NCBI GenBank assembly: GCA_902797025.1
Contig: CADBRN010000016.1
Location: forward strand, 723-64,722
Reading direction: 5' to 3'
Length of the DNA stretch: 64,000 bases
Origin: an uncultured Lachnospiraceae bacterium
Lineage (GTDB): Bacteria; Bacillota; Clostridia; Lachnospirales; Lachnospiraceae
Of this stretch, positions 32,780-63,997 are shown one piece after another. Every line of letters starts with the position of its first letter. The first letter of the stretch is position 1. A model generated the notes under the pieces. That model ran no database searches, was not told the origin of the DNA, and was given only the letters and a program-made list of their open reading frames with translations. Made by a program: the position numbers and the translations under genes.

Positions 32780-34297
32780 TCAGAACTCCCCGAACGCCTG
32801 TGCCTCCCGCATCAGGCTTCCGCCGCGTTCACTGAGCATGAATTTCCTGTTGAACTTATAGTATGGTTCGCATCCGTGATCCGCAATAAACCTCGCGCTT
32901 CGCTTTCCGACCGTCAGATTCGTCACGAGTACCAGCATCTCATTTCCGACCCCGAAGTTTTCTTCGACGAAGCGGAACAGATTGTCCAGCTCGCCGCTGA
33001 TCTCCCTCTGGCGTGTCTTCATCTTCTCAACACGCGAAGCAAAATCACCGCTCACGAGTGCGAACGCAGCTTCCTGATCCGCCGGTTTTTCCAGACGCAG
33101 CTTCTGAAGTGCAGCCGCGGCGAAAGAGATCGGATAAGCAAAACTTCTCTGCTGCTGCTCGGTCAGCGCGTTCGCCGCCTCCGCCTTCTTCATCTGCGCG
33201 CGGCTGGATCCGGCGATCGTTTCAAGTTCCATCTCCATCGTATCCGAGGGATCCTCACGGAGCGCCGACTTCGCCGCGGCCAGACTTCCGTGAAGTTTTT
33301 TCAGGCTCTCCTCCGTCTCGACCTCCTCGTTGATCTCGGGAAGCAGCGCTTCCATCAATAGTCCCATGATCGTGATCCGCTCATCAAACGACGCGCTCTG
33401 TGCCCTGCGGCGCACCTCCGCGCTTTCGCGGCCGTGGAGGATCTCGTCGACCTCATAATCCGTCCGGTATTTATTGTACAATTCGTAATATGTGGAGAAC
33501 TCCGCGCAGATCCGCGGATCGTGGAGATACTGTCCGATCAGTGTCTCATCGACCGGAAATCCCATCTCCTCATAGAGTCCGATCGCCTTTGACAGATCTT
33601 CCCATCCGCGAGCGGTCACATACTGCTTTCCGTCGACGGTTGTCCCGATATGATAGAAATCCTCATTCCGGATCTCCAGCCATGTCAGGATCGAGCGGTG
33701 AACGCCGGCCGTCTCCGCATATTTTTTCCAGGATTCAAAATCAGGCTCGACGGTCATGACCTTCAGACGGTCCAGCGTGGCGATATCGAATTCCCGCGCG
33801 GAACGATTGAACTCCGGCGGATTGCCTGCGGTCACAATGACCCATCCCTCCGGAACCTTCCGGTTTCCGAAGGTTTTGTACTGCAGGAACTGAAGCATCG
33901 ACGGCCCGAGCGTCTCAGAAACACAGTTGATTTCGTCCAGAAAGAGAATTCCTTCTCTTTTCCCGCTTTTCTCCATCGTATCGTAGACCGACGCGATGAT
34001 CTCGCTCATCGTATACATGGAGACGTCAATCTCCTCATCCCCGTATTGTTTTTTCACGATAAACGGAAGTCCGAGGGCGCTCTGACGTGTATGATGTGTC
34101 ATTGAATACGATACAAGCGCGATGTCCATCTCCCGGGCGACCTGCTCCATGATCGCGGTCTTTCCGATTCCCGGCGCGCCGAGCAGGAAAACCGGCCGCT
34201 GCTGCACCGTCGGAATCCGGTAATTTCCATACTCATCCTTCGCGAGGTAGATGGAGACTGCCTGCCTGATCTGCTGCTTTGCTTCTGCGATATTCAT
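32780..34297 (-). CDS. MoxR/AAA_5-type AAA+ ATPase with a long helical C-terminal extension
   Basis: Walker A is VFLLGAPGIGKTAI and Walker B is ILFLDEIN, followed by VIVTAGNPPEFN. I trimmed the start to the ATG at 34297 (MNIAEAKQQIRQ). Confidence 0.8.
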   Translation of the reverse strand: MNIAEAKQQIRQAVSIYLAKDEYGNYRIPTVQQRPVFLLGAPGIGKTAIMEQVAREMDIALVSYSMTHHTRQSALGLPFIVKKQYGDEEIDVSMYTMSEIIASVYDTMEKSGKREGILFLDEINCVSETLGPSMLQFLQYKTFGNRKVPEGWVIVTAGNPPEFNRSAREFDIATLDRLKVMTVEPDFESWKKYAETAGVHRSILTWLEIRNEDFYHIGTTVDGKQYVTARGWEDLSKAIGLYEEMGFPVDETLIGQYLHDPRICAEFSTYYELYNKYRTDYEVDEILHGRESAEVRRRAQSASFDERITIMGLLMEALLPEINEEVETEESLKKLHGSLAAAKSALREDPSDTMEMELETIAGSSRAQMKKAEAANALTEQQQRSFAYPISFAAAALQKLRLEKPADQEAAFALVSGDFASRVEKMKTRQREISGELDNLFRFVEENFGVGNEMLVLVTNLTVGKRSARFIADHGCEPYYKFNRKFMLSERGGSLMREAQAFGEF

Positions 34298-34365
34298 TTC
34301 CGAAATCCTTTCTGTAAACGATATTGATGCGGGACGTGCCCGCCGGCGTGATCCATCACGGCGTC

Positions 34366-35742
34366 CTAAATCCGGTCGGTGTCCGAAATGGCCAGATCCT
34401 CCTCCGCCACGTCCAGACGGATCGCCCATGGCGGTACATTCTTTATGTGCTGACGCGTCTTCAGAAATACAAATCCCGTTTTATACGGCGGCATCTTCGA
34501 CGGAAACGTTCCGAGACCGTCCGTGAAGTACAGAAGACCGCACAGCTCATGCATCCCGCCCTTTTTCTGAAGCTCTTCGACATAATCGAACACCGGCCGG
34601 AAATCCGTCCCGCCTCCGCCGCTGATCTCCACTTTTTTCAGATAGCGGTCAAATTCCTCCGGCGAGCTCAGCTTATCATCCTTCTGGATCTTCGCATCGC
34701 ACTGAATGATGTGCACCGCCGCGTGCGCGAAAAAATCTCCCGACTCCTCCAACACCGAAGCGGTGTGCGAGAGGAAGTTCCGCACCGTCCGTCCCATCGT
34801 CGATCCGGACGTATCGATCGCGATCACAAAATCACGGATCCGATTCGTGTCGCGGTACTCGAGCGGTTCGATCAGCGGCATGTTTTTGTAGAGCTGCATC
34901 CCGTACAGATAGTAGATATAATCAAACTCATCCGGATTGATATGCATCTCCTCATTCCACGTAAGAAATTTCCGCAGAAACGATGAATAGTCGTAGCGGC
35001 TTCGGCGGGCATTCAGAATATTGTCCGTCATCACGTCCGGAAGATCCCCCTGATGTTTCTCATACGTGTCCATCAGGATCTTCGTCCCCCGCGTGATGCG
35101 CCCCCATTCTTCCCCGGTTTTCTCGAAACTTCCGATGTTTCTGTGGAGCACCTCCGGATGGTTGATAAACTCCTCCGGGGCCCAGAAGCGGTGTACGTCC
35201 CGCACAAACAGCGGCGCACTTCCAAGAAGCGTCTCCGTTTCCTTCGGATTCATGTAAAAATAATGGTACAGGTTCTCCGCGGTGATCTTTCCGGCGCGCA
35301 GCTTCAGTTCGCCGATGAAGCGGATACGTTCCCGGTCCCCCGCGGTCCGGAGCAGATCCCAGTTCAGCTCAAGCATCACATTTTCGACTGCGAGATCCGC
35401 CGCAAAATCCCAGTATCGGGAATTCAGCCGGTCATAGTGGAACGGATGCTGAAAAATACAGTGCAGAAGCATATGAAGATAAATCCTCGGCAGAAGCCCC
35501 TCTTCCCGGCGAAAGCATGCGATCACCTGATTTTCATCGCAGATGATCCGGCTTCCGTTCGTGCCGAATCCCTCCGGCCGCTTCATTTTTTCAAAGCCGT
35601 TGTGATAAAAAACGACCGGCATTTTCAATACCGCCCGGTTGAAATACGGCATATTTACGATCAGCTGATCCCGCGTGTAATCAAAAATCTTCCGGGCCAG
35701 CTTCTTCGCATAAATTTCTTTTCCATCGTCATGATCTGCCAT
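34366..35742 (-). CDS. VWA-domain protein with a DUF2201-like putative metallopeptidase N-domain (HExxH degenerate)
   Basis: The N-domain reads RIYLHMLLHCIFQHPF, so the Glu of HExxH is replaced by Met. The C-terminal VWA has a MIDAS-like motif, FVIAIDTSGST. I trimmed the start to the ATG at 35742, after GGAGGTG. Confidence 0.75.
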   Translation of the reverse strand: MADHDDGKEIYAKKLARKIFDYTRDQLIVNMPYFNRAVLKMPVVFYHNGFEKMKRPEGFGTNGSRIICDENQVIACFRREEGLLPRIYLHMLLHCIFQHPFHYDRLNSRYWDFAADLAVENVMLELNWDLLRTAGDRERIRFIGELKLRAGKITAENLYHYFYMNPKETETLLGSAPLFVRDVHRFWAPEEFINHPEVLHRNIGSFEKTGEEWGRITRGTKILMDTYEKHQGDLPDVMTDNILNARRSRYDYSSFLRKFLTWNEEMHINPDEFDYIYYLYGMQLYKNMPLIEPLEYRDTNRIRDFVIAIDTSGSTMGRTVRNFLSHTASVLEESGDFFAHAAVHIIQCDAKIQKDDKLSSPEEFDRYLKKVEISGGGGTDFRPVFDYVEELQKKGGMHELCGLLYFTDGLGTFPSKMPPYKTGFVFLKTRQHIKNVPPWAIRLDVAEEDLAISDTDRI

Positions 35743-35949
35743 AACCGGCACCTCCGGGCTGAAAATCCAAGTCATCCGCCTCTTCCGCACAATCGCAGAA
35801 GGATCAGATTCTGTTATCATACCATGATTCCGGGAAAACTCACACCGCTTTAGGACAATCGGCGCAAAATGTCGTACCGCACGCGCAGCCTCTGTTGACG
35901 CTTCTCCGGACGGCTGATATAATCAGCAGATATGATCAAACAATTGTAA

Positions 35950-52906: not shown

Positions 52907-54720
52907 TATTTATCGTCCAGCTTCAGGACGTTCATAAACGCATCCTTCGGAATCTCCACGCTTCCGACCTGACGCATCCTCTTCTTTCCTTCCTTCTGCT
53001 TCTCGAGAAGCTTCTTCTTTCTCGAGATATCGCCGCCGTAGCACTTCGCAAGTACATCCTTGCGCAGCGCCTTCACCGTCTCACGGGCGATGATCTTCGA
53101 TCCGACAGCCGCCTGAATCGGTATATCGAACAGCTGCCGCGGAATCTCTTCCTTCAGCTTCTCGCACATCTTCCTTCCCCTCGTATACGCGGATCCCTCG
53201 AACACGATGAAGGAAAGCGCGTCGACGAGTTCTTTATTGACCAGAATGTCGAGCTTCACCAGATCGCTCCTCTGATAACCGGTCAGCTCATAATCCAGCG
53301 AAGCGTAACCCCGCGAGCGTGATTTCAGCGCATCGAAGAAATCATAGATGATCTCATTGAGCGGCATATGGTAATGAAGCTCCGCCCTCGTCTGATCCAG
53401 ATAGTCCATCCCGAGGTACTCGCCGCGGCGCTCTTCGCAGAGCTGCATCACCTGGCCGACGTACTCACTTGTGACCATGATATCCGCCTTAACGATCGGT
53501 TCCTCCATGAAATCGATCTCGGAGGGATCCGGAAGGTTCGAGGGATTTGACAGAGCGATAACCGAACCGTCCGTCTTATGTACCTTATAAATAACACCCG
53601 GCGACGTCGTCACCAGATCAAGGCCGTACTCGCGCTCCAGCCTTTCCTGGATAATATCCAGGTGCAGAAGTCCGAGACAGCCGATACGGAATCCGAAACC
53701 GAGGGCGGCCGACGTCTCCGGCTCGAAGAAAAGCGACGCGTCGTTCAGCTGAAGTTTCTCCAGCGCGTCCTGCAACTCCGGATACTTCGCGCTGTCCTCC
53801 GGATACAGTCCGCAGTATACCATCGGCGTGACTTTCTTGTAACCCGGCAGCGCCTTCGCGCAGGGACGTTCCTCATCCGTCACCGTGTCGCCGACGCGTG
53901 TGCTCGAAACATCCTTGATGCTCGCCGTGATGTAGCCGACCATACCGGCCTCCAGCTCGTCGCAGGGAATCAGCCGTCCCGCCCCGAAATAGCCGACCTC
54001 GACGACTTCCTCGACGGCTCCGGTCGCCATCATGCGGATTTTTGTTCCGCGGCGCACCGTACCTTCCATGACGCGCACCGAGATAATGACTCCCTTGTAG
54101 GCATCGTACAGGGAATCGAAGATCAGCGCTTTGAGCGGCGCTTTCACATCACCCTCAGGCGGAGCGATCTTCTGCACGATCTCCTCGAGAACGGCGTCCA
54201 CATTCTCCCCGGTCTTCGCCGAAATCTCCGGCGCGTCCTGCGCCTCGATTCCGATGATCTCCTCGATCTCATCCTTGACGCCCTGCGGATCGGCGCTCGG
54301 AAGATCGATCTTATTGATCACCGGGTAGACGTCAAGATTGTGATCCATCGCAAGATACACATTCCCGAGAGTCTGCGCCTCAACGCCCTGCGTCGCGTCG
54401 ACCACGAGCAGTGCACCGTCGCAGGCGGCAAGGCTTCTTGAAACCTCGTAGTTGAAATCGACATGTCCGGGCGTATCAATCATGTTGAAGATATATTCTT
54501 CGCCGTCCTTCGCCCGGTAAATCGTCCGGACGGCCTGCGCTTTGATCGTGATGCCCCGTTCCCGTTCAAGATCCATATTATCAAGAACCTGGCTCTGCAT
54601 CTCGCGGCTCGTCAGCAGACCCGTCTTCTCTATGATTCGGTCCGCCAGGGTCGATTTGCCGTGATCGATATGCGCAATAATGCAGAAATTTCTTATTTTA
54701 TTCTGATCAATCGAACTCAA
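52906..54720 (-). CDS. lepA: Elongation factor 4 (LepA)
   Basis: [28 protein letters not shown] and the C-terminal LepA_C region. The TTG start follows GGGAG. Confidence 0.95.
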
Positions 54721-54823
54721 TGGTAAGCTCCCTTTTAACTATTGCCTTGGATTCACCGGAAATGATACGAATTATCGGAGATAAGTTCATCCGGAGTTCC
54801 TTCCAGATACCCGTGCCGCCTTA

Positions 54824-55171
54824 TTATACCGCAGCCACAACAATCCCCGCGATGATTAGTGCGAGCGCCAGAATTTTTTTTCGATTCACTTTTTCATGAA
54901 AAATCTTTACCCCGAAAATTGTCACATAGATGTAGCTTGTCGCCTCAAGTACCGGTCCAAGTGAAAGCGGCACACCCCGGTATGCGATCACAGAACAGAG
55001 CGTCGCCACAATAAAAATCAGATACGCAGAAAGGACGAGCGGATTCAGATATTCCCGGATCTTACTGGGATAAGTCTTCATCGCCGCTTTTTTCAGCATG
55101 ACCTGCGAGATCGCGCTGATAAAAGTTCCAAACAGGATAAAAAGAGAATACAGAGCGACTGTTTTCGTCAT
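54824..55171 (-). CDS. Small EamA/DMT-type four-helix membrane protein (ArnE/ArnF-like flippase subunit candidate)
   Basis: 115 aa with 4 hydrophobic helices. It overlaps its paralogous neighbour by 4 nt. Confidence 0.6.
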   Translation of the reverse strand: MTKTVALYSLFILFGTFISAISQVMLKKAAMKTYPSKIREYLNPLVLSAYLIFIVATLCSVIAYRGVPLSLGPVLEATSYIYVTIFGVKIFHEKVNRKKILALALIIAGIVVAAV

Positions 55172-55569
55172 TGTGCCTCCTCACTTTCTTCAGAAGCGGA
55201 ACTGCCCTTTTTCACATCATCTCCGCCATCGGAAAGTGCATACAGAGCCACACCGGCGACGACAAGAATAATCCCTGTTATTTTATTGAAACGAATCTCT
55301 TCGTGAAAGATGAGAAATCCCCATACAGCTCCCCAGATTACGGTCACGGCGCGGTTCGCGTATGCAGTTGTAAGCGGCAGTCTCTTTATAATCTGCTGCC
55401 AGGCGATCGCATAAAATCCCAGAAGAACAATCACCATGCCGTAGTATAAAATAAATTTCGGACTTAAAAACGCCTGCTTTGAAGCCAGCTTGCTGCAGAT
55501 GCCGCTCATCGAATAAATCATCAGCATAAGGTGCAGGGCGACATAAGTCAGTACGGTGTTTTTCTTCAT
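55168..55569 (-). CDS. Small EamA/DMT-type four-helix membrane protein (ArnE/ArnF-like flippase subunit candidate)
   Basis: 133 aa with 4 hydrophobic helices and an acidic C-terminal tail. It overlaps the ATP-grasp gene by 4 nt. Confidence 0.6.
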   Translation of the reverse strand: MKKNTVLTYVALHLMLMIYSMSGICSKLASKQAFLSPKFILYYGMVIVLLGFYAIAWQQIIKRLPLTTAYANRAVTVIWGAVWGFLIFHEEIRFNKITGIILVVAGVALYALSDGGDDVKKGSSASEESEEAQ

Positions 55570-56753
55570 AAACGGTTCTCCGGCAAATAGTTCATCAGTT
55601 TCTCCCTGCTGTCCGCGGTAAAGACATAGCAGCCAAAGCGGGTCGAACTGTCGGACACCGCATCATTGGTGATCGGATGCACCTCTTCGCAGACGATATC
55701 AATCTCCGGGTCTTTCTTCATCCGGTTAAGGTTCTCGATATCCTCCTTCGTAAATATAAATCTTACACCTGCAGGTTTTCCCGCGTGGTTCAACGACAGA
55801 TCCGGTTCCTCCCCGAGAGCGATCTGGATCACCGCTTTCATAAAATCAACACCGGTCGACAAGGGAACCAGCGTGCTTCCGATTAAATCGCCGCCCATGC
55901 GTCCGCCGATCTCGATCAGGCGGATCTGTCCTTCCTGATCGATTTTCAGTTCCGAATGCGACGCGCCATACTCGATATGCAGAGAGGTAAGCGCGTGGCT
56001 TACGACTGCTTTTATCTTTTCCAGTGTTTCTTTGGAAACAGGAGCCGGCTCCAGATGCCCGGTCTCGATGAAATGTGGTGCGCCTGTCGTATATTTCTGT
56101 GTCAGCTGGAGGAAGTGATGCTGCCCTTTCCAGGAGATATATTCCACACTGTACTCCTGCCCGGTGACAAATTCTTCCACCAGAACACCGTGCTCAAAGC
56201 TGACTTCCGATGCTTCTTTCACCGCTTTCGACAGTCCTGTTTCATCCTGCATTTTGAAAATGCCGCGGCTTCCGGAACGATCGGTTGGCTTCACGATAAC
56301 GGGATAGCGAAATCCTTCCTTCTGAAGGAGCGCCCCTATGGAGGCATCCGTTATGGGTTTTTTCAATTTCCCGGTGCAGACTTCGATACTTCTTGGCGAA
56401 GGATCGCCATTTTTTAAAAAGCAGTCGCGCATCGCCTTCTTATTGGTCGAGACCTCGGCCGCATACGGAGAATTTCCCACCAATCCAAGCTTGTTCGCGA
56501 CATAATTTACCGTCGACGCGCCTAAATCCGTCGCGATTGTACAAATGCCGTCCACGCCGATTTCGCGGCATTTGTCCGCAACCGCATCCTTCTCGACGAT
56601 GCTGATCGGATAGAAATAATCCGAACTCTTTTCGCCCACATCGCCCGCCGCCCAGGCAAAAACATGGGTTTCAATCCCCATTTCCTTTGCTTTTTCGATC
56701 AGCGGTTCCTGCAGATAAGAGGCTCCGATAATTGCAAGTTTCTTTTGATTCAT
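55566..56753 (-). CDS. ATP-grasp domain carboxylate-amine ligase
   Basis: KKLAIIGASYLQ pre-ATP-grasp region, then YPVIVKPTDRSGSRGI, VLVEEFVTGQEYSVE and LIEIGGRMGG, which are typical ATP-grasp elements. Confidence 0.8.
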   Translation of the reverse strand: MNQKKLAIIGASYLQEPLIEKAKEMGIETHVFAWAAGDVGEKSSDYFYPISIVEKDAVADKCREIGVDGICTIATDLGASTVNYVANKLGLVGNSPYAAEVSTNKKAMRDCFLKNGDPSPRSIEVCTGKLKKPITDASIGALLQKEGFRYPVIVKPTDRSGSRGIFKMQDETGLSKAVKEASEVSFEHGVLVEEFVTGQEYSVEYISWKGQHHFLQLTQKYTTGAPHFIETGHLEPAPVSKETLEKIKAVVSHALTSLHIEYGASHSELKIDQEGQIRLIEIGGRMGGDLIGSTLVPLSTGVDFMKAVIQIALGEEPDLSLNHAGKPAGVRFIFTKEDIENLNRMKKDPEIDIVCEEVHPITNDAVSDSSTRFGCYVFTADSREKLMNYLPENRL

Positions 56754-57700
56754 TCTTTCGCTCCGTCTTCAGATCCCTGTTCTCCGTTCAAAATCGTCCG
56801 TACAAGATAAATGGGCCTGCGTTTGACCTCCATAAAGATATTGCCGACATAGATACCGACAACCCCGATGCCGGATAACAGAAGGCCGCCCATCAGGAAA
56901 GTAACCGCTATCTGGCTCGCCCATCCGGCAGGTGCGCTGGTCGTAAAATGTCGAATGATAATGACGATCACCGCTATGAACGCAAGGAATGCGACCATGA
57001 AGCCCATGCGGAGCATGACCCGGAGGAGTTTATCTGACTGGGATGTCAGAATCTCCATCGCCACGTTCACGCGCTTCTTCAGACTGTATCCGCTTTTTCC
57101 GGCGAACCGCTCATGATGCTGCACGTCAATGGATGTCTGCCGGAATCCCATCCATTGAATATACATGACATAGGCTCTGTGAAGTTCCCGCATCCTGCAG
57201 TAGGAATCCACAACCTTCCGGCTGCAGATGGAAAAATTGCAGAGTGCAGGATCATAGTCCACATCGGTTGCCCAGGAATAAAACCGATAGAACAGTCCGG
57301 AAAGAAAAATTTTGAATTTTGAATCCTGCCGTTCCGCTCTTCTTGCGAAAACTACATCATAGCCCTCTTTCGCTTTCTCGTACAGATGAATGATCTCCTC
57401 CGGATCATCCTGCAAATCGCAGTCCATGACAACTGTCCAGTCTCCAGAGCTGTAGTCCAGACCTGCAAGAATCGCCTTGATCTGTCCGAAATTTCTGGAC
57501 ATATCAATTCCGACAACATGCTTATCCCTGCTGCAGACATCGCGGATCCCTTCCCAGGAATTTTTCGGGCAGTGATCATTCACCATGATAATTTCATAAT
57601 CATCACCGGCCAGCTTTGTAAGCGTCCCGGTCAACCGTCTGTGCAGCTCCGGGATTGCTTCCGGACAGCCATACATCGGAATTACAACTGAAAATTTCAT
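56750..57700 (-). CDS. GT2 polyprenyl-phosphate glycosyltransferase (ArnC/GtrB/DPM1 architecture)
   Basis: MKFSVVIPMYGC start, DYEIIMVNDHC, VVMDCDLQDDP (the DxD motif), and two C-terminal TM helices. I trimmed the start to the ATG at 57700. Confidence 0.8.
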   Translation of the reverse strand: MKFSVVIPMYGCPEAIPELHRRLTGTLTKLAGDDYEIIMVNDHCPKNSWEGIRDVCSRDKHVVGIDMSRNFGQIKAILAGLDYSSGDWTVVMDCDLQDDPEEIIHLYEKAKEGYDVVFARRAERQDSKFKIFLSGLFYRFYSWATDVDYDPALCNFSICSRKVVDSYCRMRELHRAYVMYIQWMGFRQTSIDVQHHERFAGKSGYSLKKRVNVAMEILTSQSDKLLRVMLRMGFMVAFLAFIAVIVIIIRHFTTSAPAGWASQIAVTFLMGGLLLSGIGVVGIYVGNIFMEVKRRPIYLVRTILNGEQGSEDGAKE

Positions 57701-57728
57701 ATCTTCTGTTCTTCGTCTCTCTTTCGGA

Positions 57729-58727
57729 TTATTTATTCGTCCAGAGGCTGTCAAAACGCCTCTGCTCACTCTCTTTTTTATAGTCTTCCAGATATTTGAT
57801 GTAAGGATATTCCGGTTTATATCCAAGTTCTCTTTCGGCCTTGCCGATATCCATGACAAAGCTCGTAAACTGCACATCCATCGGAATCTCCGTTATCTTC
57901 GGATGGGTTCCTTCCGGAGCAAAAACATCGATCATTCCCTGAATCTGTTCACGAAGCGTCGTACGGATGCCGGTTCCCGCATTATAGGTTCCGCCGTCAA
58001 TCTTCGCGAACAGCGCCTGATACATCATCCGGCAGAGATCCTTTACGTACAGAATGTCCTTGAACGCATCCGGATCTCCCCAGAGTTCTATGTCCTTTCC
58101 CTCAGATGCCTGCCGGATCATCCAACGGTAACCGATCTTCTTTTCCTTTCCGTCGACCAGGTAGGTCATACGGGGTGCATACATATAAACGTTCGGAAGG
58201 CGGAAGACAAAATTTTTCACACCATATTCCTGCTTATAATATTCCATCGTATCCACGATCATACACTTCGTGATGGAATAGAAGGCATGATCTCCGGTAT
58301 AAAGGAGCTTTCTTGGAAGATCCGGAGAAAGTACCGCGGTCTTTCCCCAATATCCGGCCTGTTCCGCCCAGGTCTGGGTGTAGAGGACGCGGTCCGCCTG
58401 AACCTTCCGCGCATATTCCATAATGCGAAGACTTCCCTTGATGTTGGTCTCAATGTATGCGAACGGATCATACTTCTTCAAGTAGGCCGGAAGCAGCCCC
58501 GTCAGGTTAATCACCGCATAAATATCATCCGTCGGAAGGTCTGAAAAATCTTCTTCCCTGCATACGTCGACTTTAACCGTCCTGATGCCTTCGTTTTTGT
58601 AAAACCCGAGGTTCTTACGTCCGACTGCGAGGACCTCAAAATCCTCCGGCAGATGTCTCCTGCAGTAATCGGTCAGATACGCGCCGATATATCCGGTCGC
58701 GCCGAAAATCACAATTTTTTTCTTCAT
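57729..58727 (-). CDS. NAD-dependent epimerase/dehydratase (extended SDR)
   Basis: KIVIFGATGYIGAYL Rossmann motif and YSITK (YxxxK). Confidence 0.8.
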   Translation of the reverse strand: MKKKIVIFGATGYIGAYLTDYCRRHLPEDFEVLAVGRKNLGFYKNEGIRTVKVDVCREEDFSDLPTDDIYAVINLTGLLPAYLKKYDPFAYIETNIKGSLRIMEYARKVQADRVLYTQTWAEQAGYWGKTAVLSPDLPRKLLYTGDHAFYSITKCMIVDTMEYYKQEYGVKNFVFRLPNVYMYAPRMTYLVDGKEKKIGYRWMIRQASEGKDIELWGDPDAFKDILYVKDLCRMMYQALFAKIDGGTYNAGTGIRTTLREQIQGMIDVFAPEGTHPKITEIPMDVQFTSFVMDIGKAERELGYKPEYPYIKYLEDYKKESEQRRFDSLWTNK

Positions 58728-58728
58728 A

Positions 58729-59862
58729 TCAGTTTTCCCTGTAGAAATCCGTAACTGCAGTCACAACCGCCCGGCGTTCTTCCTCTTTCAGCCCATAGTA
58801 CATCGGCAGTCTGACGAGGCGTTCACTCTCATTCGTCGTATAAACATCCTCTCCATCGAACCGTCCGAACTTGTACCCGGCCGGTGCGGAATGAAGCGGT
58901 ATATAATGAAATACAAGCTGCACGCCGCGCTCCCTGCAGTAATGAATCAGAGCCGTCCGCTCCTGCAGATCTTTGCACTTTATGTAATACATATGGGCAT
59001 TATGTCCGCATCCATCCGGAACGGTCGGAAGTTCCACCTTCCCGGATGCCTTCAGTTCCTGCAATGATTCATCATAAAAGTTCCATGTCGCCATGCGGTC
59101 CGCTTCTATTTCATCCGCATTCTGCAGCTGTCCCCAAAGGTACGCTGCATTCAGTTCGCTCGGCAGATAACTGTCACCGAAATCGACCCATGTATATTTG
59201 TCAACCTGTCCCCGAAAGAACTTTGCGCGATTTGTTCCTTTCTCCCGGAGGATTTCCGCTTTCTCATTAAATTCCGGGCTGTTGATAACAAGGGCTCCTC
59301 CCTCTCCCATAGAGAAATTTTTCGTCTCATGGAAGGAATAGCACCCGAAATCACCGATTGTGCCAAGATATTTTCCCTTATAGGTACTTGTTACCGCCTG
59401 CGCGGCATCCTCAATAACTTTAAGCCCGTGGCGCCGCGCAATGTCCATGATGGTGTCCATTTCACAAGCGACACCTGCATAGTGGACGCAGCAGATGACC
59501 TTTGTCTTATCCGTGATGGCCTGCTCGATTTTCTTCTCATCAATGTTCATCGTGTCCGGACGGATATCAACAAAAACAAGCTTCGCTCCGCAAAGTACCG
59601 GCGCGTTTGCCGTACTGGAAAATGTGTAGCTCGGCAGTATCACTTCATCCCCGGTTTTTAATCCGCACAATTCAAATGCCATGTCCAGGGCAGTTGACCC
59701 GCTGGTCGTCAGCATGATTTTCTGCGCATGGAACCTTTTCTCCAGCCAGGCATTGCACTTCTTCGTAAACTGCCCGTCACCGCAGATTTTATGCGAATCA
59801 ATTGCCTCTTTTACATACTTCAGTTCATTGCCCACATAAGGGGGCACATTAAAATTAATCAC
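58729..59862 (-). CDS. DegT/WecE-type NDP-4-keto-6-deoxyhexose aminotransferase
   Basis: By my recollection it resembles E. coli WecE along its length: GNELKYVKEAIDSHKICGDGQFTKKC, ILPSYTFSSTANA, VHYAGVACEMDTIM, SFHETKN (PLP Lys) and REKGTNRAKFFRGQVDKYTW. Confidence 0.85.
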   Translation of the reverse strand: MINFNVPPYVGNELKYVKEAIDSHKICGDGQFTKKCNAWLEKRFHAQKIMLTTSGSTALDMAFELCGLKTGDEVILPSYTFSSTANAPVLCGAKLVFVDIRPDTMNIDEKKIEQAITDKTKVICCVHYAGVACEMDTIMDIARRHGLKVIEDAAQAVTSTYKGKYLGTIGDFGCYSFHETKNFSMGEGGALVINSPEFNEKAEILREKGTNRAKFFRGQVDKYTWVDFGDSYLPSELNAAYLWGQLQNADEIEADRMATWNFYDESLQELKASGKVELPTVPDGCGHNAHMYYIKCKDLQERTALIHYCRERGVQLVFHYIPLHSAPAGYKFGRFDGEDVYTTNESERLVRLPMYYGLKEEERRAVVTAVTDFYREN

Positions 59863-59889
59863 GTTCTTCTCCCCGTCAATATATTTTTA

Positions 59890-61236
59890 TTAGTTCATCC
59901 CACTTTGACTCGGCATATAGACATTACAAAATACATAAAGGATCGTATAAACGACCATACCCGTTATCACAATCGACTTCAGCACTTTATGCTCTTCCGC
60001 CGTCTTGATCCCGTTGGCTGTGATCATTGTGAGAGCCGGCAGCAGGCTCATCACATACCGGCCCTGCGGCTGATAATCGGAAGTGTAGGAATACCAGTAT
60101 GACAGAAAAATCGAAAACAGGAACATCAATCCCAATAACACTCCGAAAACTGCCTTCGTCTTTTCTTTCCTTTTTATTACAAATACTGATGATAAAATAC
60201 ACATAATCAGCAAAAATGTAAAGAGGAGAGCATAGCCTCCCCAGACCCATTCATTGACCATAAACTCCATGTAACCGAAGTAACCGATAAAACTGATGAA
60301 TGACTTCTGCCACCATCCCTTATCGTGCAGGAGGTATGTAATGTTTTTCCCCTGTGCCTGAAGAGAGGGGTGCTGCTCCGGCTTGAAATCGGGACGTGCA
60401 TAAAGCCTCTGCGCATTCGCCATGGAGGTGCGTCCAAGCAGATCCCCGTCATAGAGCACCAGATTCCGGATAAAGAAAAATGCGGTGATTCCGATTACGA
60501 TCGCGCAAATCAGTCCCGTCAGCTTCCACATTCTGGATAAATCCTGATTCTTCCCCATCTTTGCAAAAAAAGACACAAAAAATAGCAGGATACTCGCCAA
60601 AATCCATCCGTATCCGAAATAATAGGAAAGTGCGACAATCGAGATACCGGCCGAAAGCAGAATTGAGTTTTTAACATTCCATCCGTCCTGAATACCCTGT
60701 ACCCACGCCAGAAGAATGACCGCCACCCCCAACAAGTTTACGCTGTCCTGATTCACATAGCTTCCCAAAAACGTCACCTGCGGAATCAGGCAGATGATAA
60801 CAAGTGTAAGCCATTTGATGTGCTTTTCAAAAAGTCTGTCCAATGTTCTCGCCAGACAGAACGCCATCCCGCTGATTGATACGACACTGACAAACCTGGC
60901 GGCGACGAGCAGCTTAAATCCGGATTCACCGAAAAAGAACGCGACAACATGCATACAACACGCAGCAGCCAACGGCTCCAGCCAGGTCGGCATAAACGCA
61001 TAAGAAAATCCCCAGATTGCGTTTCTGATGGTCGGATCATCTCCTAAAGGAAACCTGCCGTTTTGGTAAATATACAGCGGCAGGTCGTAACGCATCGCCT
61101 CGTCCGGAGCATAATTGTATGGTTTGGAAATGCTCCAGACAGTCATATAGAAGCCAAGCAGGGCAACAAATAGCAATTCCAGAAAAACCTGATGTTCTGA
61201 AAACCACGCGAAAAGATGATACCTTTTACTTTTCAT
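59890..61236 (-). CDS. GT-C-type polytopic membrane glycosyltransferase candidate (ArnT/PMT/DUF2142-like)
   Basis: 448 aa with at least 10 hydrophobic helices. The first extracytoplasmic loop carries YNYAPDEAMRYDLPLYIYQNGRFP, an acidic D-E pair like GT-C catalytic loops. It is the first gene of the locus. Confidence 0.55.
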   Translation of the reverse strand: MKSKRYHLFAWFSEHQVFLELLFVALLGFYMTVWSISKPYNYAPDEAMRYDLPLYIYQNGRFPLGDDPTIRNAIWGFSYAFMPTWLEPLAAACCMHVVAFFFGESGFKLLVAARFVSVVSISGMAFCLARTLDRLFEKHIKWLTLVIICLIPQVTFLGSYVNQDSVNLLGVAVILLAWVQGIQDGWNVKNSILLSAGISIVALSYYFGYGWILASILLFFVSFFAKMGKNQDLSRMWKLTGLICAIVIGITAFFFIRNLVLYDGDLLGRTSMANAQRLYARPDFKPEQHPSLQAQGKNITYLLHDKGWWQKSFISFIGYFGYMEFMVNEWVWGGYALLFTFLLIMCILSSVFVIKRKEKTKAVFGVLLGLMFLFSIFLSYWYSYTSDYQPQGRYVMSLLPALTMITANGIKTAEEHKVLKSIVITGMVVYTILYVFCNVYMPSQSGMN

Positions 61237-61574
61237 ATCCTAATCGTCCCATAAAATTCGCTCTGACCGCCGGCTCCATAACATCGTACCACGTGTTCTG
61301 TGTCATTACCTTCCCGCTGCCAACACTTTTCAATGATATCAGGCGGCTCAGGCGGCACCCGTCTGCTACTGTATTTTGTAAGTATAACACAAATCTGCAG
61401 GATATGTCCTCTGCACATATCAGAATATAAAACATGATACCACAGCAATACAAACGGAGTCCGATCTGAATGCAGCCCCGCTCCGGCGCGGGAAAGGCAA
61501 GATTCTGATATCCGTACCGGACGGATTCTGATAAGATAAAAGAAAACCGATTGATCAAAAAAGAGGAATCCGCC

Positions 61575-62507
61575 ATGACCGGCACCGTATCTGTTCTTTC
61601 CGTGATTCTCCCCGTGATCGTGATGATCGCGCTCGGTATGCTCGCGAGAAAAAAGCATCTGATCTCACAGAAGGGCATCGATGATATCAAATCCATATTG
61701 ATGAATATCTGCATTCCGGCACTGATGTTCCGGACCTTTTACGCCGCAGACCTCACATCAAAATCCGCGCTGGCCGTCATCCTGATGTTTGCGGTGACCC
61801 TCGCGACGTTCGCCATCGGCCGCCTGTTTCGGAAACTTTTCCGCATCCGATACGAGATGGGGAGCTATCTTTGTACCTCCATCGAGGGCGGAATGCTCGG
61901 ATACGCGCTGTTCACACTGCTGTTCGGCCAGGAAAACCTGTATCATTTCGCGCTTCTGGATCTCGGAAACGCCCTCGTTCTTTTCCCGATCCTGATGACG
62001 CGTCTCCGCCTGCGCACGGAAAACCATGTCTCCGGAAAGGATGTGGCGCGCTCGATGGCTACGCCGGTCAATTTCGCCATCGCGGCCGGAATTCTCATCA
62101 GTGTCACCGGGCTCGGCGGAGTCATCCAGTCCACCGGATCCGGAGCGGTTCTCGACGCCGTTCTGAATTTCGCAGGAGGGCCGACGGGCGCGCTGATTCT
62201 GATCGTCGTCGGATACGGCCTCGCATTTGACCAGGTGCCCTGGCCGGAGACGATCCGTACTGTAATAGCCCGGCTCATCATCTATGGGGCCTTCGGAGTT
62301 CTTGTCGTCCGGATCGTCAGGGTTCTGTTCCCGGGCGACGTCATGTATCTCTACGGTGCCGTGATGGCATTTATCATGCCTCCGTCCTTCGCGTACACGG
62401 TGTACTTCCGTGAAGGAGAAGAAAGCGCCTATGCCGGCGCCGTTCTGGCGGTGTACACGATTTTCACGATCATCGGATTCTGTCTGGTCGCCGCCTCCGC
62501 CCTGTGA
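61575..62507 (+). CDS. AEC (auxin efflux carrier) family transporter
   Basis: About 10 TM helices. The N-terminus VLSVILPVIVMIALGMLARKKHLISQKGIDDIKSILMNICIPALMF is typical of the AEC/MleP-like family. The ATG at 61575 follows AAGAGGAA. Confidence 0.8.
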   Translation: MTGTVSVLSVILPVIVMIALGMLARKKHLISQKGIDDIKSILMNICIPALMFRTFYAADLTSKSALAVILMFAVTLATFAIGRLFRKLFRIRYEMGSYLCTSIEGGMLGYALFTLLFGQENLYHFALLDLGNALVLFPILMTRLRLRTENHVSGKDVARSMATPVNFAIAAGILISVTGLGGVIQSTGSGAVLDAVLNFAGGPTGALILIVVGYGLAFDQVPWPETIRTVIARLIIYGAFGVLVVRIVRVLFPGDVMYLYGAVMAFIMPPSFAYTVYFREGEESAYAGAVLAVYTIFTIIGFCLVAASAL

Positions 62508-62538
62508 CAGGCGTTTTGCGAAATACGCGAAAATCCCC

Positions 62539-62567
62539 TTGACAAGGTTTCGGAATAGACCTAATAT
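62539..62567 (+). promoter_or_regulatory. Candidate sigma-A promoter of rpsT
   Basis: TTGACA-17 nt-TAATAT, about 105 nt upstream of the rpsT start. Confidence 0.55.
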
Positions 62568-62674
62568 AAACAAGTGTCGGCTGCACACTATGTTCCAAGG
62601 GATTCGTGTCTCCCCTTCAGGAACGGGATGCATATCGCAATAGTTCAGTTCATTAAATCGGAGGTGTAATCAGA

Positions 62675-62938
62675 TTGGCTAACATCAAATCTGCAAAAAA
62701 ACGAATCCTTGTCAACGAAAAGAAGGCTGCAAGAAATAAAGCCATCAGATCCGAAGTTAAAACTTCGATCAAGAATGTTGAAGCGGCTGTCGCAGCGGGC
62801 AGCAAAGAAGAGGCTGCTGCAAAACTCACCAAATCAATCTCCGTGATCGAGAAGGCGGGTTCCAAGGGCGTCTATCACAAGAATAACGTCGCAAGAAAGG
62901 TCGCGAGACTGAGCAAAGCTGTAAGTTCCATGGAATAA
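62675..62938 (+). CDS. rpsT: 30S ribosomal protein S20
   Basis: (M)ANIKSAKKRILVNEKKAARNKAIRSEVKT. The TTG start is preceded by GGAGGTG. Confidence 0.9.
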   Translation: MANIKSAKKRILVNEKKAARNKAIRSEVKTSIKNVEAAVAAGSKEEAAAKLTKSISVIEKAGSKGVYHKNNVARKVARLSKAVSSME

Positions 62939-62961
62939 AGCAGCCATCAATCCAGAAAATC

Positions 62962-62997
62962 AGCGGATTCCGGAAAGATTTCCGGGATCCGCTTTTT
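62962..62997. terminator. Bidirectional terminator between rpsT and holA
   Basis: AGCGGATTCCGGAAA-gat-TTCCGGGATCCGCT followed by TTTTTATTTT, with an A-rich 5' flank. Confidence 0.75.
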
Positions 62998-63997
62998 ATT
63001 TTACCGCACTGTACTTCACGATCATCATCTCTACGCTGAGTTCGTCTTTGAGCCTTCCCGTCTTGACGTCCGTTTCCGTCCGGACGAAATCAGCGACCGC
63101 TTCTCTCAGCTCCGATTCCGTATAACTTTTACAGACCGGCATATATTTTCGGAGAGCGAAGGAAGGAATCCCCGCTTTTTTGATAATCACATCGTCCGGC
63201 TCTCCGTCCGCGAGAAGTGCCCGGATCTGATAGAGCCGGTTGAATTCCTGCGCAAGGAGATAGAGAATCCGCATCGGCGGCTCCTTCAGTGCCAGAAGAT
63301 CGTAGTAGAGATCAAGTGCTTCCCTCTGGCGGTGAGTCGAGACAGCGCGAACCATATCAAATACACGGTTCTGGACGCGCTGCGTGCAGATTGCACGGAT
63401 ATCTTCTCCCGTGATCTCATCCCGCCCCATCGTGTAACAGAGAAGCTTCTCCGTCTCATTGCTGATGGTGCTCATATCATCACCGGTCATCTGAAAAAAC
63501 AGCCCGACATCCTCTCTCCGGATTTTCTTATTTTCTTTCTTCAGGCGGGCAAGAAACCAGCGGTGCAGAACATCTTCCGTCTGGCGGACAAACTCCGCCG
63601 CATGGCCGTATTTTTTGACCGCCTTGTAGAGCCTGCTCCGCTTGTCCACGTCGCTCTCCACAAATACCAGCACCAGATAATCCGGCAGATTTTTCATATA
63701 ATCAGCCAGATCCTCCGCCTTTCTTTTAAACAGCCCGCTGTCCTCCGCCAGAATCACACGGCGCGGCGCGAAGAACGGCATCGTCTCCGCCTGAGCGATA
63801 ATCTCCTGTTCATCGCACCCCTGTCCCTCAAAACGGGTCAGATTCATCGTATCCTCCGGTTTTACCAGAGACTGCACCAGCTTGTCGCGGTACGCGTTTT
63901 TGACGTAATCCTCCTCGCCGTAAAGAAGATAAACCTTCTCCCATTTTTTATTCTTAATATCTTCACTGATCCGCTTCATATCCGTCTGCCGCCTCAT
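62996..63997 (-). CDS. holA: DNA polymerase III delta subunit
   Basis: VYLLYGEEDYVKNAYRDKL N-terminus, 333 aa, divergent from rpsT as in Bacillus-type synteny. Confidence 0.85.
   Translation of the reverse strand: MRRQTDMKRISEDIKNKKWEKVYLLYGEEDYVKNAYRDKLVQSLVKPEDTMNLTRFEGQGCDEQEIIAQAETMPFFAPRRVILAEDSGLFKRKAEDLADYMKNLPDYLVLVFVESDVDKRSRLYKAVKKYGHAAEFVRQTEDVLHRWFLARLKKENKKIRREDVGLFFQMTGDDMSTISNETEKLLCYTMGRDEITGEDIRAICTQRVQNRVFDMVRAVSTHRQREALDLYYDLLALKEPPMRILYLLAQEFNRLYQIRALLADGEPDDVIIKKAGIPSFALRKYMPVCKSYTESELREAVADFVRTETDVKTGRLKDELSVEMMIVKYSAVK

Follow-up and report, generated by a model that had tools for sequence, protein, structure and literature searches.

What does an ATP-grasp ligase do in a locus predicted to make an amino sugar, load it onto a lipid carrier and export it? 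The question is raised by seven closely packed genes on the minus strand (54824-61236) of a 64,000-nucleotide stretch of DNA, referred to below as the window, from an uncultured Lachnospiraceae bacterium (GenBank assembly GCA_902797025.1, contig CADBRN010000016.1, positions 723 to 64,722). The cassette encodes a GT-C-fold transferase, a WecE-type aminotransferase, an extended short-chain dehydrogenase/reductase (SDR), an ArnC/GtrB/PgfS-type glycosyltransferase (GT2), the ligase and two EamA half-transporters. We consider it very probable that the locus is a self-contained three-component extracytoplasmic glycosylation system of the Gtr/Arn/Pgf type, and we favour, with reserve, the view that its ATP-grasp-equipped cassette assembles, on a lipid carrier, a 4-amino-6-deoxy sugar with an unusual N-acyl group, which is then flipped and attached to a molecule of the cell surface. 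The module is real and widespread, and represents a variant of three-component glycosylation not previously characterised; neither the Pfam, NCBIfam and PDB databases nor the open-access literature searched yielded a description of it.

Predicted sugar-making enzymes

The pyridoxal phosphate-dependent aminotransferase (58729-59862, minus strand; 377 amino acids, aa) was identified by profile and structure-database matches. It scores 604 bits against the NCBIfam equivalog NF008687 (WecE; cutoff 375) and 594 bits against TIGR02379, and aligns over its full length with Escherichia coli WecE (4piw, 518 bits), retaining the SFHETKN lysine motif. The ArnB profile gives 178 bits, under its cutoff of 631. 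An earlier interpretation of this DNA, made without database searches (the sequence-only reading), had called the protein a sugar aminotransferase of the WecE/DegT type, which agrees with these scores. By its profile and alignment scores the enzyme is clearly an orthologue of WecE, predicted to convert deoxythymidine diphosphate (dTDP)-4-keto-6-deoxy-D-glucose to dTDP-4-amino-4,6-dideoxyhexose, and the sugar handled by the cassette is likely a WecE-derived 4-amino-6-deoxyhexose.

The extended SDR (57729-58727, minus strand; 332 aa) matches PF01370 with 105 bits and contains both motifs expected from the sequence-only reading, GATGYIG and YSITK, the latter within a T..YSITK active site. It scores 52.7 bits against the RmlB profile (cutoff 365). 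Aligned to RmlB of Clostridium ljungdahlii, it has YTQTWAE in place of STDEVYG, i.e., it lacks the TDE motif, and it has G-R-K after beta2, where RmlB has D. An acidic residue stands after beta2 in dehydratases and epimerases that retain NAD, and the G-R-K type points to an NADP(H)-dependent oxidoreductase. Across related cassettes the SDR slot is filled by three related subfamilies, all with DHxxYxI[ST]K, and is empty in many. As many cassettes have no SDR and real rmlA/rmlB genes adjoin relatives of the cassette, the SDR is best seen as an accessory tailoring enzyme, probably an NADP(H)-dependent tailoring oxidoreductase acting as a partner of the ATP-grasp protein. A role as a 4,6-dehydratase or an ArnA-like decarboxylase was rejected on account of the missing TDE/TSE motif and the NADP-type signature, and because relatives encode RmlB separately and many cassettes do without an SDR; the cofactor signature likewise does not fit a GalE-type NAD epimerase, the role of PgfE. 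Since the SDR is not a dehydratase, supply of the 4-keto-6-deoxy precursor must depend on rml genes, none of which lies in the window. The claim that the locus makes a 4-amino-6-deoxyhexose is therefore supported for the WecE step but not for the synthesis of the precursor.

The type-C SDR, found in three of the related loci (L023, L042, and L084), is always accompanied by an extra divergent DegT-family aminotransferase (344-353 aa), encoded between the SDR and ATP-grasp genes. This suggests a dehydrogenase/transaminase pair that adds a second amine.

The ATP-grasp ligase

The putative ATP-grasp carboxylate-amine ligase (55566-56753, minus strand; 395 aa) has ATP-grasp_4 as its best Pfam match (87 bits). 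Its nearest solved proteins by sequence are the L-amino-acid ligase BL00235 (3vot; 97 bits, 24% identity) and then 4dim. When its AlphaFold2 model (pLDDT 90.8) was compared by Foldseek, 4dim and the L-amino-acid ligases BL00235, RizA, and BacD headed the list, with PurK and PurT directly after them. Scores against the L-amino-acid-ligase equivalogs are low (BacD, 42 bits, cutoff 850; DdaF, 38 bits, cutoff 840); none of the curated NCBIfam families claims the protein at its equivalog cutoff, and its public annotation is merely "ATP-grasp domain-containing protein" or "biotin carboxylase". On balance, we expect the enzyme to acylate the C4 amine of the WecE-derived sugar. That an amino acid is attached with its own amine left free, and the decoration therefore cationic, is a doubtful proposition at present.

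Predicted lipid-carrier and transfer enzymes

The GT2 gene (56750-57700, minus strand; 316 aa) was assigned a corrected start. Its longest open reading frame (ORF) is 56750-57877 and would begin at an ATG inside the 3' end of the SDR gene, with 149 nt shared between the two; the ATG at 57700 (MKFSVVIPMYG), where the conserved protein begins, was adopted, as annotated on metagenome contigs with an identical locus. The protein can be aligned end to end with GtrB (5eke, 173 bits) and ArnC (9hwj, 163 bits), including the DxD-like motif DCDLQD and the C-terminal part associated with the membrane, and has two C-terminal transmembrane (TM) segments (residues 224-292). The best profiles, PgfS (227 bits, cutoff 500) and ArnC (181 bits, cutoff 529), both remain below cutoff. 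The alignments thus point to the ArnC/GtrB architecture of polyprenyl-phosphate glycosyltransferases.

Two small EamA proteins, putative flippase subunits, are encoded by the last two genes of the cassette. The first (55168-55569, minus strand; 133 aa, four TM segments) scores 33 bits against PF00892 (cutoff 28.2) and has ArnE as its best NCBIfam match (32.5 bits, cutoff 92); the second (54824-55171, minus strand; 115 aa) scores 30 bits against PF00892, again above the cutoff, and 37.9 bits against the ArnE profile, under the cutoff of the latter. The two are paralogues with 27% identity, which, together with ArnE being the best NCBIfam match of both, fits a putative heterodimeric flippase of the ArnE/F kind.

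The 448-aa polytopic protein (59890-61236, minus strand; at least 11 hydrophobic segments) gave no significant Pfam, NCBIfam or PDB match in sequence and profile searches, the only hits being sub-threshold ones to PMT_2 and GT22. Its AlphaFold2 model, built from an alignment of 35 homologues (pLDDT 93.4), matched ArnT (5f15), AglB, Pmt4, STT3, and ALG9 in Foldseek with probability 1.0 and query-normalised TM-scores of 0.50-0.59; the top of the list held GT-C enzymes only, ALG12, DPY19, and AftA/B among them. Residues D45-E46, located in the first extracytoplasmic loop, are invariant among the 35 homologues, and homologues of the protein belong to PF13231/PF09913 and are annotated as ArnT-family or GT39. 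Judged from the model, the protein is a GT-C-fold enzyme, predicted to be a polyprenyl-phosphate-sugar-dependent transferase and to form the variable part of the system that determines the acceptor. The sequence-only reading had proposed a GT-C protein, a GT2 of the ArnC/GtrB/DPM1 architecture and two EamA-type proteins of ArnE/F size; all three assignments agree with these data.

Conservation of the cassette

The ATP-grasp family is large: of 8,000 candidates considered, more than 7,700 proteins scored E<=1e-10, and relatives were found in at least 508 stretches of the species-representative genome set, i.e., in at least 508 species from several phyla, most of them bacteria of the gut and rumen. 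Synteny was compared in the best 80 ATP-grasp loci (53-69% identity), 54 of which have complete flanks. The closest locus belongs to Candidatus Weimeria (69%), which together with Pseudobutyrivibrio, Butyrivibrio, and Roseburia represents the Lachnospiraceae. The Oscillospiraceae are represented by Gemmiger, Subdoligranulum, and Faecalibacterium, and further carriers are C. ljungdahlii, Eggerthellaceae (Actinomycetota), a metagenome-assembled genome (MAG) labelled Acholeplasmatales, and a Solobacterium MAG. The recurrent gene order is an optional polytopic protein, WecE, GT2 and SDR (in either order), ATP-grasp, EamA, EamA, and often another polytopic protein. As the same set is syntenic in Lachnospiraceae, Oscillospiraceae, Eggerthellaceae, and others, the arrangement cannot be ascribed to chance.

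In the loci with complete flanks, WecE adjoins the ATP-grasp gene in 34 of the 54, the EamA pair lies next to it (downstream) in 33, and the orthologous GT2 gene in 24. All of them are present in 18, in line with the expectation that the ligase gene is kept with the aminotransferase, GT2 and flippase set in relatives. None of them is found beside the ATP-grasp gene in 14 of the 54 (e.g., in Gemmiger and Porcincola), where a GT2 gene of the ArnC type nevertheless stands alongside (ArnC profile, 188 and 147 bits). The ATP-grasp gene is the most conserved gene of the cassette and its core, rather than an extra in an Arn-like locus, as it had been described earlier. The position of the polytopic protein is kept as well, with varying families in it: ArnT/PMT-like, YfhO (302, 165, and 65 bits), and GtrII (63 and 47 bits). 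A conserved loading and flipping core combined with an interchangeable GT-C protein is the signature of three-component glycosylation systems.

Real rmlA/rmlB genes adjoin related cassettes in 13-14 loci, and in C. ljungdahlii the genes for WecE and the ATP-grasp protein stand beside rmlBADC inside a Wzx/Wzy cluster; these neighbourhoods place the ATP-grasp protein in dTDP-sugar metabolism.

Two other arrangements were observed. In Gemmiger and Subdoligranulum (L026, L029, L049, and L070), the ATP-grasp and ArnC-type GT2 genes form a two-gene island between a CLC channel gene and mfd, with no aminotransferase, EamA pair or GT-C gene nearby. In Porcincola and a related MAG (L011, L012, and L014), the ATP-grasp gene is located beside genes for an ArnC-type GT2 and a second ATP-grasp protein, and alongside lies an apparent Liv-type branched-chain amino-acid ABC transporter (two BCA_ABC_TP_C ATPases, two permeases, and a 408-aa protein).

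Genomic context of the proposed N-acylation

In C. ljungdahlii and in L053, L058, L068, L082, and L087, the WecE/ATP-grasp pair is found in Wzx/Wzy clusters beside rmlBADC and has no GT2 or EamA genes with it. Pairs of this kind imply that the ATP-grasp protein belongs to nucleotide-sugar tailoring. A cultured organism, Enterococcus hirae, has a Wzy-type capsule locus on plasmid NZ_CP068121.1 (L088, 4231-10194) with genes, in order, for a nucleoside diphosphate-sugar epimerase/dehydratase, a DegT aminotransferase, an SDR, a sugar transferase, and an ATP-grasp protein. Identities to the window proteins are 26% for the DegT aminotransferase (of a subfamily other than WecE), 34% for the SDR, and 35% for the ATP-grasp protein. 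An LbH N-acetyltransferase (PglD-type) is absent from the locus. The names under which its genes are annotated suggest a bacillosamine-type route, in which the ATP-grasp/SDR pair would occupy the place of PglD. Since the SDR and ATP-grasp genes here follow a non-WecE aminotransferase with no N-acetyltransferase present, the ATP-grasp protein would N-acylate the 4-amine and the SDR would tailor the product; such a locus could yield a 4-amino-6-deoxy sugar bearing an unusual N-acyl group. The suggestion of the sequence-only reading that the ATP-grasp protein acylates the sugar amine gains independent support from this association with a different 4-aminotransferase. Plasmid NZ_OY725904.1 of Bacteroides finegoldii (L089, 6677-11135) encodes an aminotransferase, two tandem ATP-grasp proteins, and an SDR (36% identity to the window SDR). 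The shared feature of these differing scaffolds, i.e., the WecE, E. hirae, and B. finegoldii loci, is the 4-amine. The B. finegoldii genes lie near a set of GtrA, GT2, and polysaccharide-deacetylase genes and a gene of the lipoteichoic acid (LTA)-synthase family.

Variant cassettes contain additional genes for a second ATP-grasp protein similar to L-amino-acid ligases (LAL) and PurT, LbH acyltransferases (VioB/NeuD-type and others), FabG-like reductases, a second aminotransferase with the type-C SDR, and a methyltransferase fused to the ATP-grasp protein. These additions fit an elaboration of the appended acyl or aminoacyl residue. The second, paralogous ATP-grasp protein (338-432 aa) is encoded beside the main one in L018, L025, L063, L065, L071, L075, L076, and L082; that of L018 (432 aa) has a weak LAL_C2 match, and PurT is its best NCBIfam match (63 bits). 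The pairing hints at two successive ligations. The fusion was found in a MAG of an uncultured Eubacterium (L035, 8998-10911), where the ATP-grasp protein has a C-terminal class-I methyltransferase (Methyltransf_23, 60 bits), implying methylation of the ligase product.

Sugars of this kind are substituted with N-acetylglycyl, alanyl, and N-(3-hydroxybutyryl)alanyl groups in bacterial O-antigens, a resemblance that serves here as a lead and not as evidence. Amide-linked glycine (O91), N-acetylglycine (O121), and L-alanine substituents are listed in a review of E. coli O-antigens (PMC7685785).

Proposed pathway and alternatives

From the gene content, the folds and families, and the conserved synteny, all of which were observed, we infer how the steps follow one another, which acid is donated, what the SDR does, and which acceptor receives the sugar. 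Products of rmlA and rmlB located elsewhere in the genome would supply dTDP-4-keto-6-deoxy-D-glucose, which the WecE orthologue would transaminate. The ATP-grasp protein would convert a carboxylic acid to an acyl phosphate and join it to the C4 amine, replacing the N-acetyl- and N-formyltransferases of WecD, PglD, and ArnA chemistry; its affinity to L-amino-acid ligases would make an amino acid the most likely acid. The NADP-type SDR would then alter the product by reduction or epimerisation of the acyl group or the sugar. The ArnC/GtrB-type GT2 would move the sugar onto undecaprenyl phosphate, the EamA heterodimer would flip the lipid-linked sugar, and the 448-aa GT-C enzyme would transfer it to an extracytoplasmic acceptor, which may be a wall polysaccharide, a teichoic acid or a Ser/Thr-rich protein. 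An extracytoplasmic polymer, the acceptor named in the sequence-only reading, is possible, and so is a protein: YfhO-type GT-C enzymes have been linked both to lipoteichoic-acid glycosylation (PMC7389260) and to glycosylation of Ser/Thr-rich proteins, YfhO being the family of PgfM1/M2 (PMC12041528). More tentatively, and with rather low confidence, the ATP-grasp protein with its SDR could found an unrecognised widespread family for ATP-dependent aminoacylation of 4-amino-4,6-dideoxy sugars, yielding a cationic or zwitterionic wall decoration.

Several points speak against the proposed pathway. The genes rmlA/rmlB (rmlABCD) were not found within the 64-kb window. Enzymes of the ArnC/GtrB type are known to use sugars linked to uridine or guanosine diphosphate (UDP or GDP), and their use of dTDP-sugars is, to our knowledge, unprecedented. 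Identity of the ATP-grasp protein to characterised L-amino-acid ligases is only 17-24%, and because it is so low, the substrate class is not secure. A VioB/NeuD-type N-acetyltransferase is encoded together with the ATP-grasp protein in 7 loci, where it would be a competitor for that amine if its target is not the appended residue. No aminotransferase gene lies within 7 kb in 14 of the 54 loci with complete flanks (Gemmiger, Subdoligranulum, and Porcincola), and three MAGs have the order RmlA-RmlB-GT2-ATP-grasp-EamA-EamA without an aminotransferase; in such carriers either the amine step is encoded elsewhere, or the ATP-grasp protein does not need it.

The same 14 loci agree with an alternative in which the ATP-grasp protein leaves the C4 amine alone and acts on a carboxylate of the sugar or the acceptor, as Cj1438C does, or on the undecaprenyl-phosphate-linked sugar after the GT2 step. 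Its tightest partner is indeed the ArnC-type GT2 (62 of the 80 loci) rather than the aminotransferase (48 of the 80), and amidation of a sugar carboxylate by an ATP-grasp enzyme is experimentally established for Cj1438C (PMC11800379). We regard this alternative as improbable: Cj1438C is TupA-like, whereas the window protein is best matched by ATP-grasp_4 and has no TupA-type Pfam match; the cassette has no uronic-acid-forming enzyme; the ATP-grasp protein accompanies two unrelated 4-aminotransferase pathways that have the 4-amine in common; and the WecE/ATP-grasp pairs next to rml genes have neither GT2 nor EamA partners. The ATP-grasp protein could also act on the 4-amine but take a small acid (formate or acetate) in a PurT-like reaction, producing an N-formyl or N-acetyl amino sugar, so that the decoration would be neutral and its chemistry only mildly new. 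Acylation would then only pull the unfavourable transamination forward and provide the form recognised by the GT2, as formylation by ArnA does for 4-amino-4-deoxy-L-arabinose (Ara4N). The rank of PurT and PurK right behind the L-amino-acid ligases in the Foldseek list, the PurT match of the second ATP-grasp protein of some loci (63 bits in NCBIfam), and the resemblance of the GT2 to ArnC, whose substrate is a formamido sugar, agree with such a role. It seems unlikely nonetheless, since the window protein is nearer to L-amino-acid ligases (3vot, 97 bits, 24%) than to PurT (about 15%), the cassette has no ArnD-like deformylase, and the accessory SDR, LbH, FabG, methyltransferase, and second ligase genes are hard to explain for a formyl or acetyl group. 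A conversion of a carboxylate via an acyl phosphate and an aldehyde to an amine, following the logic of LysX and ArgB-ArgC-ArgD and leading from a uronic acid to a 6-amino sugar, has a superficial fit to the trio of ATP-grasp protein, SDR, and aminotransferase and to the NADP-type signature of the SDR. Such a route requires the SDR, yet many cassettes have none; the aminotransferase is clearly WecE, and rmlA/rmlB flank related cassettes. With these three findings against it, the aldehyde route was rejected as having a negligible probability.

Comparison with known systems

The cassette follows the same logic as the Arn (PmrHFIJKLM) system: a 4-amino sugar made by a DegT-family enzyme is N-acylated, transferred to undecaprenyl phosphate by an ArnC-type GT2, flipped by a pair of small four-TM proteins similar to the DMT/SMR type, and transferred outside by a GT-C enzyme. 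Its proteins find some of their best database or structural matches in ArnC, ArnE, and ArnT. The earlier description of the locus as Arn-like is therefore correct with respect to this logic, but the locus is not Arn proper. It encodes neither ArnA (UDP-glucuronate decarboxylase/formyltransferase) nor the ArnD deformylase, its aminotransferase is WecE and not ArnB, and its scores stay short of the cutoffs for ArnB and ArnC. Moreover, the sugar of the cassette would derive from a dTDP-6-deoxyhexose and that of Arn from a UDP-pentose; acylation would be performed by an ATP-grasp enzyme and not by a folate-dependent formyltransferase; and the host, a rumen Firmicute, lacks lipid A.

The trio of a GT2, a flippase, and a variable GT-C enzyme is shared with the Gram-positive systems GtrB/CsbB/GtlA with GtcA and YfhO/GtlB, which act on teichoic acids, and with Pgf of Streptococcus mutans (PgfS, PgfE, and PgfM1/M2). 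PgfS is the best NCBIfam match of the GT2, and YfhO GT-C enzymes, the family of PgfM1/M2, occur in related cassettes. Unlike the cassette, the known Gram-positive systems load UDP-glucose, UDP-galactose, UDP-N-acetylglucosamine or UDP-N-acetylgalactosamine directly, none of them has an aminotransferase or an ATP-grasp protein, and their flippase is GtcA/GtrA instead of an EamA pair. As for Pgf, the PgfS cutoff is not reached, the GT-C enzyme of the window is not YfhO, and the SDR is not of the GalE type. The cassette thus belongs to none of the Arn, GtrB/GtcA/YfhO, and Pgf systems, and the ATP-grasp protein and its SDR partner are integral to it.

The L-amino-acid ligases BL00235, RizA, and BacD/YwfE, as well as PurT, have the same ATP-grasp fold and form an acyl phosphate that is then attacked by an amine. 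They function in the context of dipeptide antibiotics or purines, whereas the context of the cassette is glycan biosynthesis, and the predicted amine is that of a nucleotide- or lipid-linked amino sugar. In surface glycans, formation of an amide bond by an ATP-grasp enzyme is experimentally established for Cj1438C of the Campylobacter jejuni capsule (PMC11800379), besides which no other established ATP-grasp amide-forming enzyme of surface-glycan synthesis was found in the open-access literature. Cj1438C differs from the window protein in being TupA-like, in activating the C6 carboxylate of glucuronate and adding an amine, i.e., in having the opposite polarity, and in working on the capsule backbone and not in a lipid-carrier monosaccharide pathway.

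Implications for surface glycans

Three-component systems are the main bacterial means of remodelling finished surface polymers; serotype, phage receptors, and cationic-peptide resistance are under their control. All characterised systems load ordinary sugars or simply acetylated or formylated ones; the cassette would bring in an ATP-driven ligation step and, with it, N-acyl or aminoacyl decorations of a new class. Its carriers include abundant genera of the human gut and the rumen (Roseburia, Gemmiger, Subdoligranulum, Faecalibacterium, Eggerthella, and Butyrivibrio). The ATP-grasp/SDR pair is a candidate enzymology for the amide-linked amino- and hydroxy-acid groups on 4-amino-6-deoxy sugars of O-antigens and capsules. 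If the sugar is indeed aminoacylated, and thereby cationic or zwitterionic, it would be a counterpart of D-alanylation of teichoic acids and of Ara4N on lipid A, and would tune cationic-peptide resistance, phage adsorption, and host recognition in anaerobes of the gut and rumen. Cultured and partly tractable carriers exist, namely C. ljungdahlii, E. hirae (FDAARGOS_1124, plasmid unnamed2), and Pseudobutyrivibrio (P. xylanivorans MZ8).

Boundaries and surroundings of the cassette

All seven minus-strand ORFs were located at the coordinates given in the sequence-only reading, as were the 4-nt overlaps at 55168-55171, 55566-55569, and 56750-56753. The other intergenic gaps are 1-28 nt, leaving no space for an additional gene. 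The cassette is flanked by holA, rpsT, and an AEC transporter gene on one side and by lepA, hemW, and uvrA on the other, and the contigs with an identical locus, which stem from gut or rumen samples of cattle and other sources, have the same flanks as the window. The G+C content is 0.48-0.51 over window positions 54000-62000, with 48-49% for the cassette, and 0.52-0.59 (about 55%) elsewhere in the window. This low G+C content and the position wedged among housekeeping genes suggest that the cassette was gained by horizontal transfer. A phage origin, considered by analogy with phage-borne Gtr cassettes, was rejected, as no homologues were present among 50,697 phage records.

A candidate sigma-70-like promoter, AGGACA-18-TATACT with an extended TG (9 of 12 consensus matches), was found 5' of the GT-C gene (61381-61410, minus strand), although the evidence for it is weak. 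No Rfam element, riboswitches included, was detected in window positions 54000-63000, and no convincing terminator was seen between the final cassette gene and lepA. Elsewhere in the window (32780-35820, minus strand), a gene for an AAA ATPase (Pfam AAA and AAA_5) is followed by one for a VWA-like DUF2201 protein, the two ORFs overlapping by about 60 nt.

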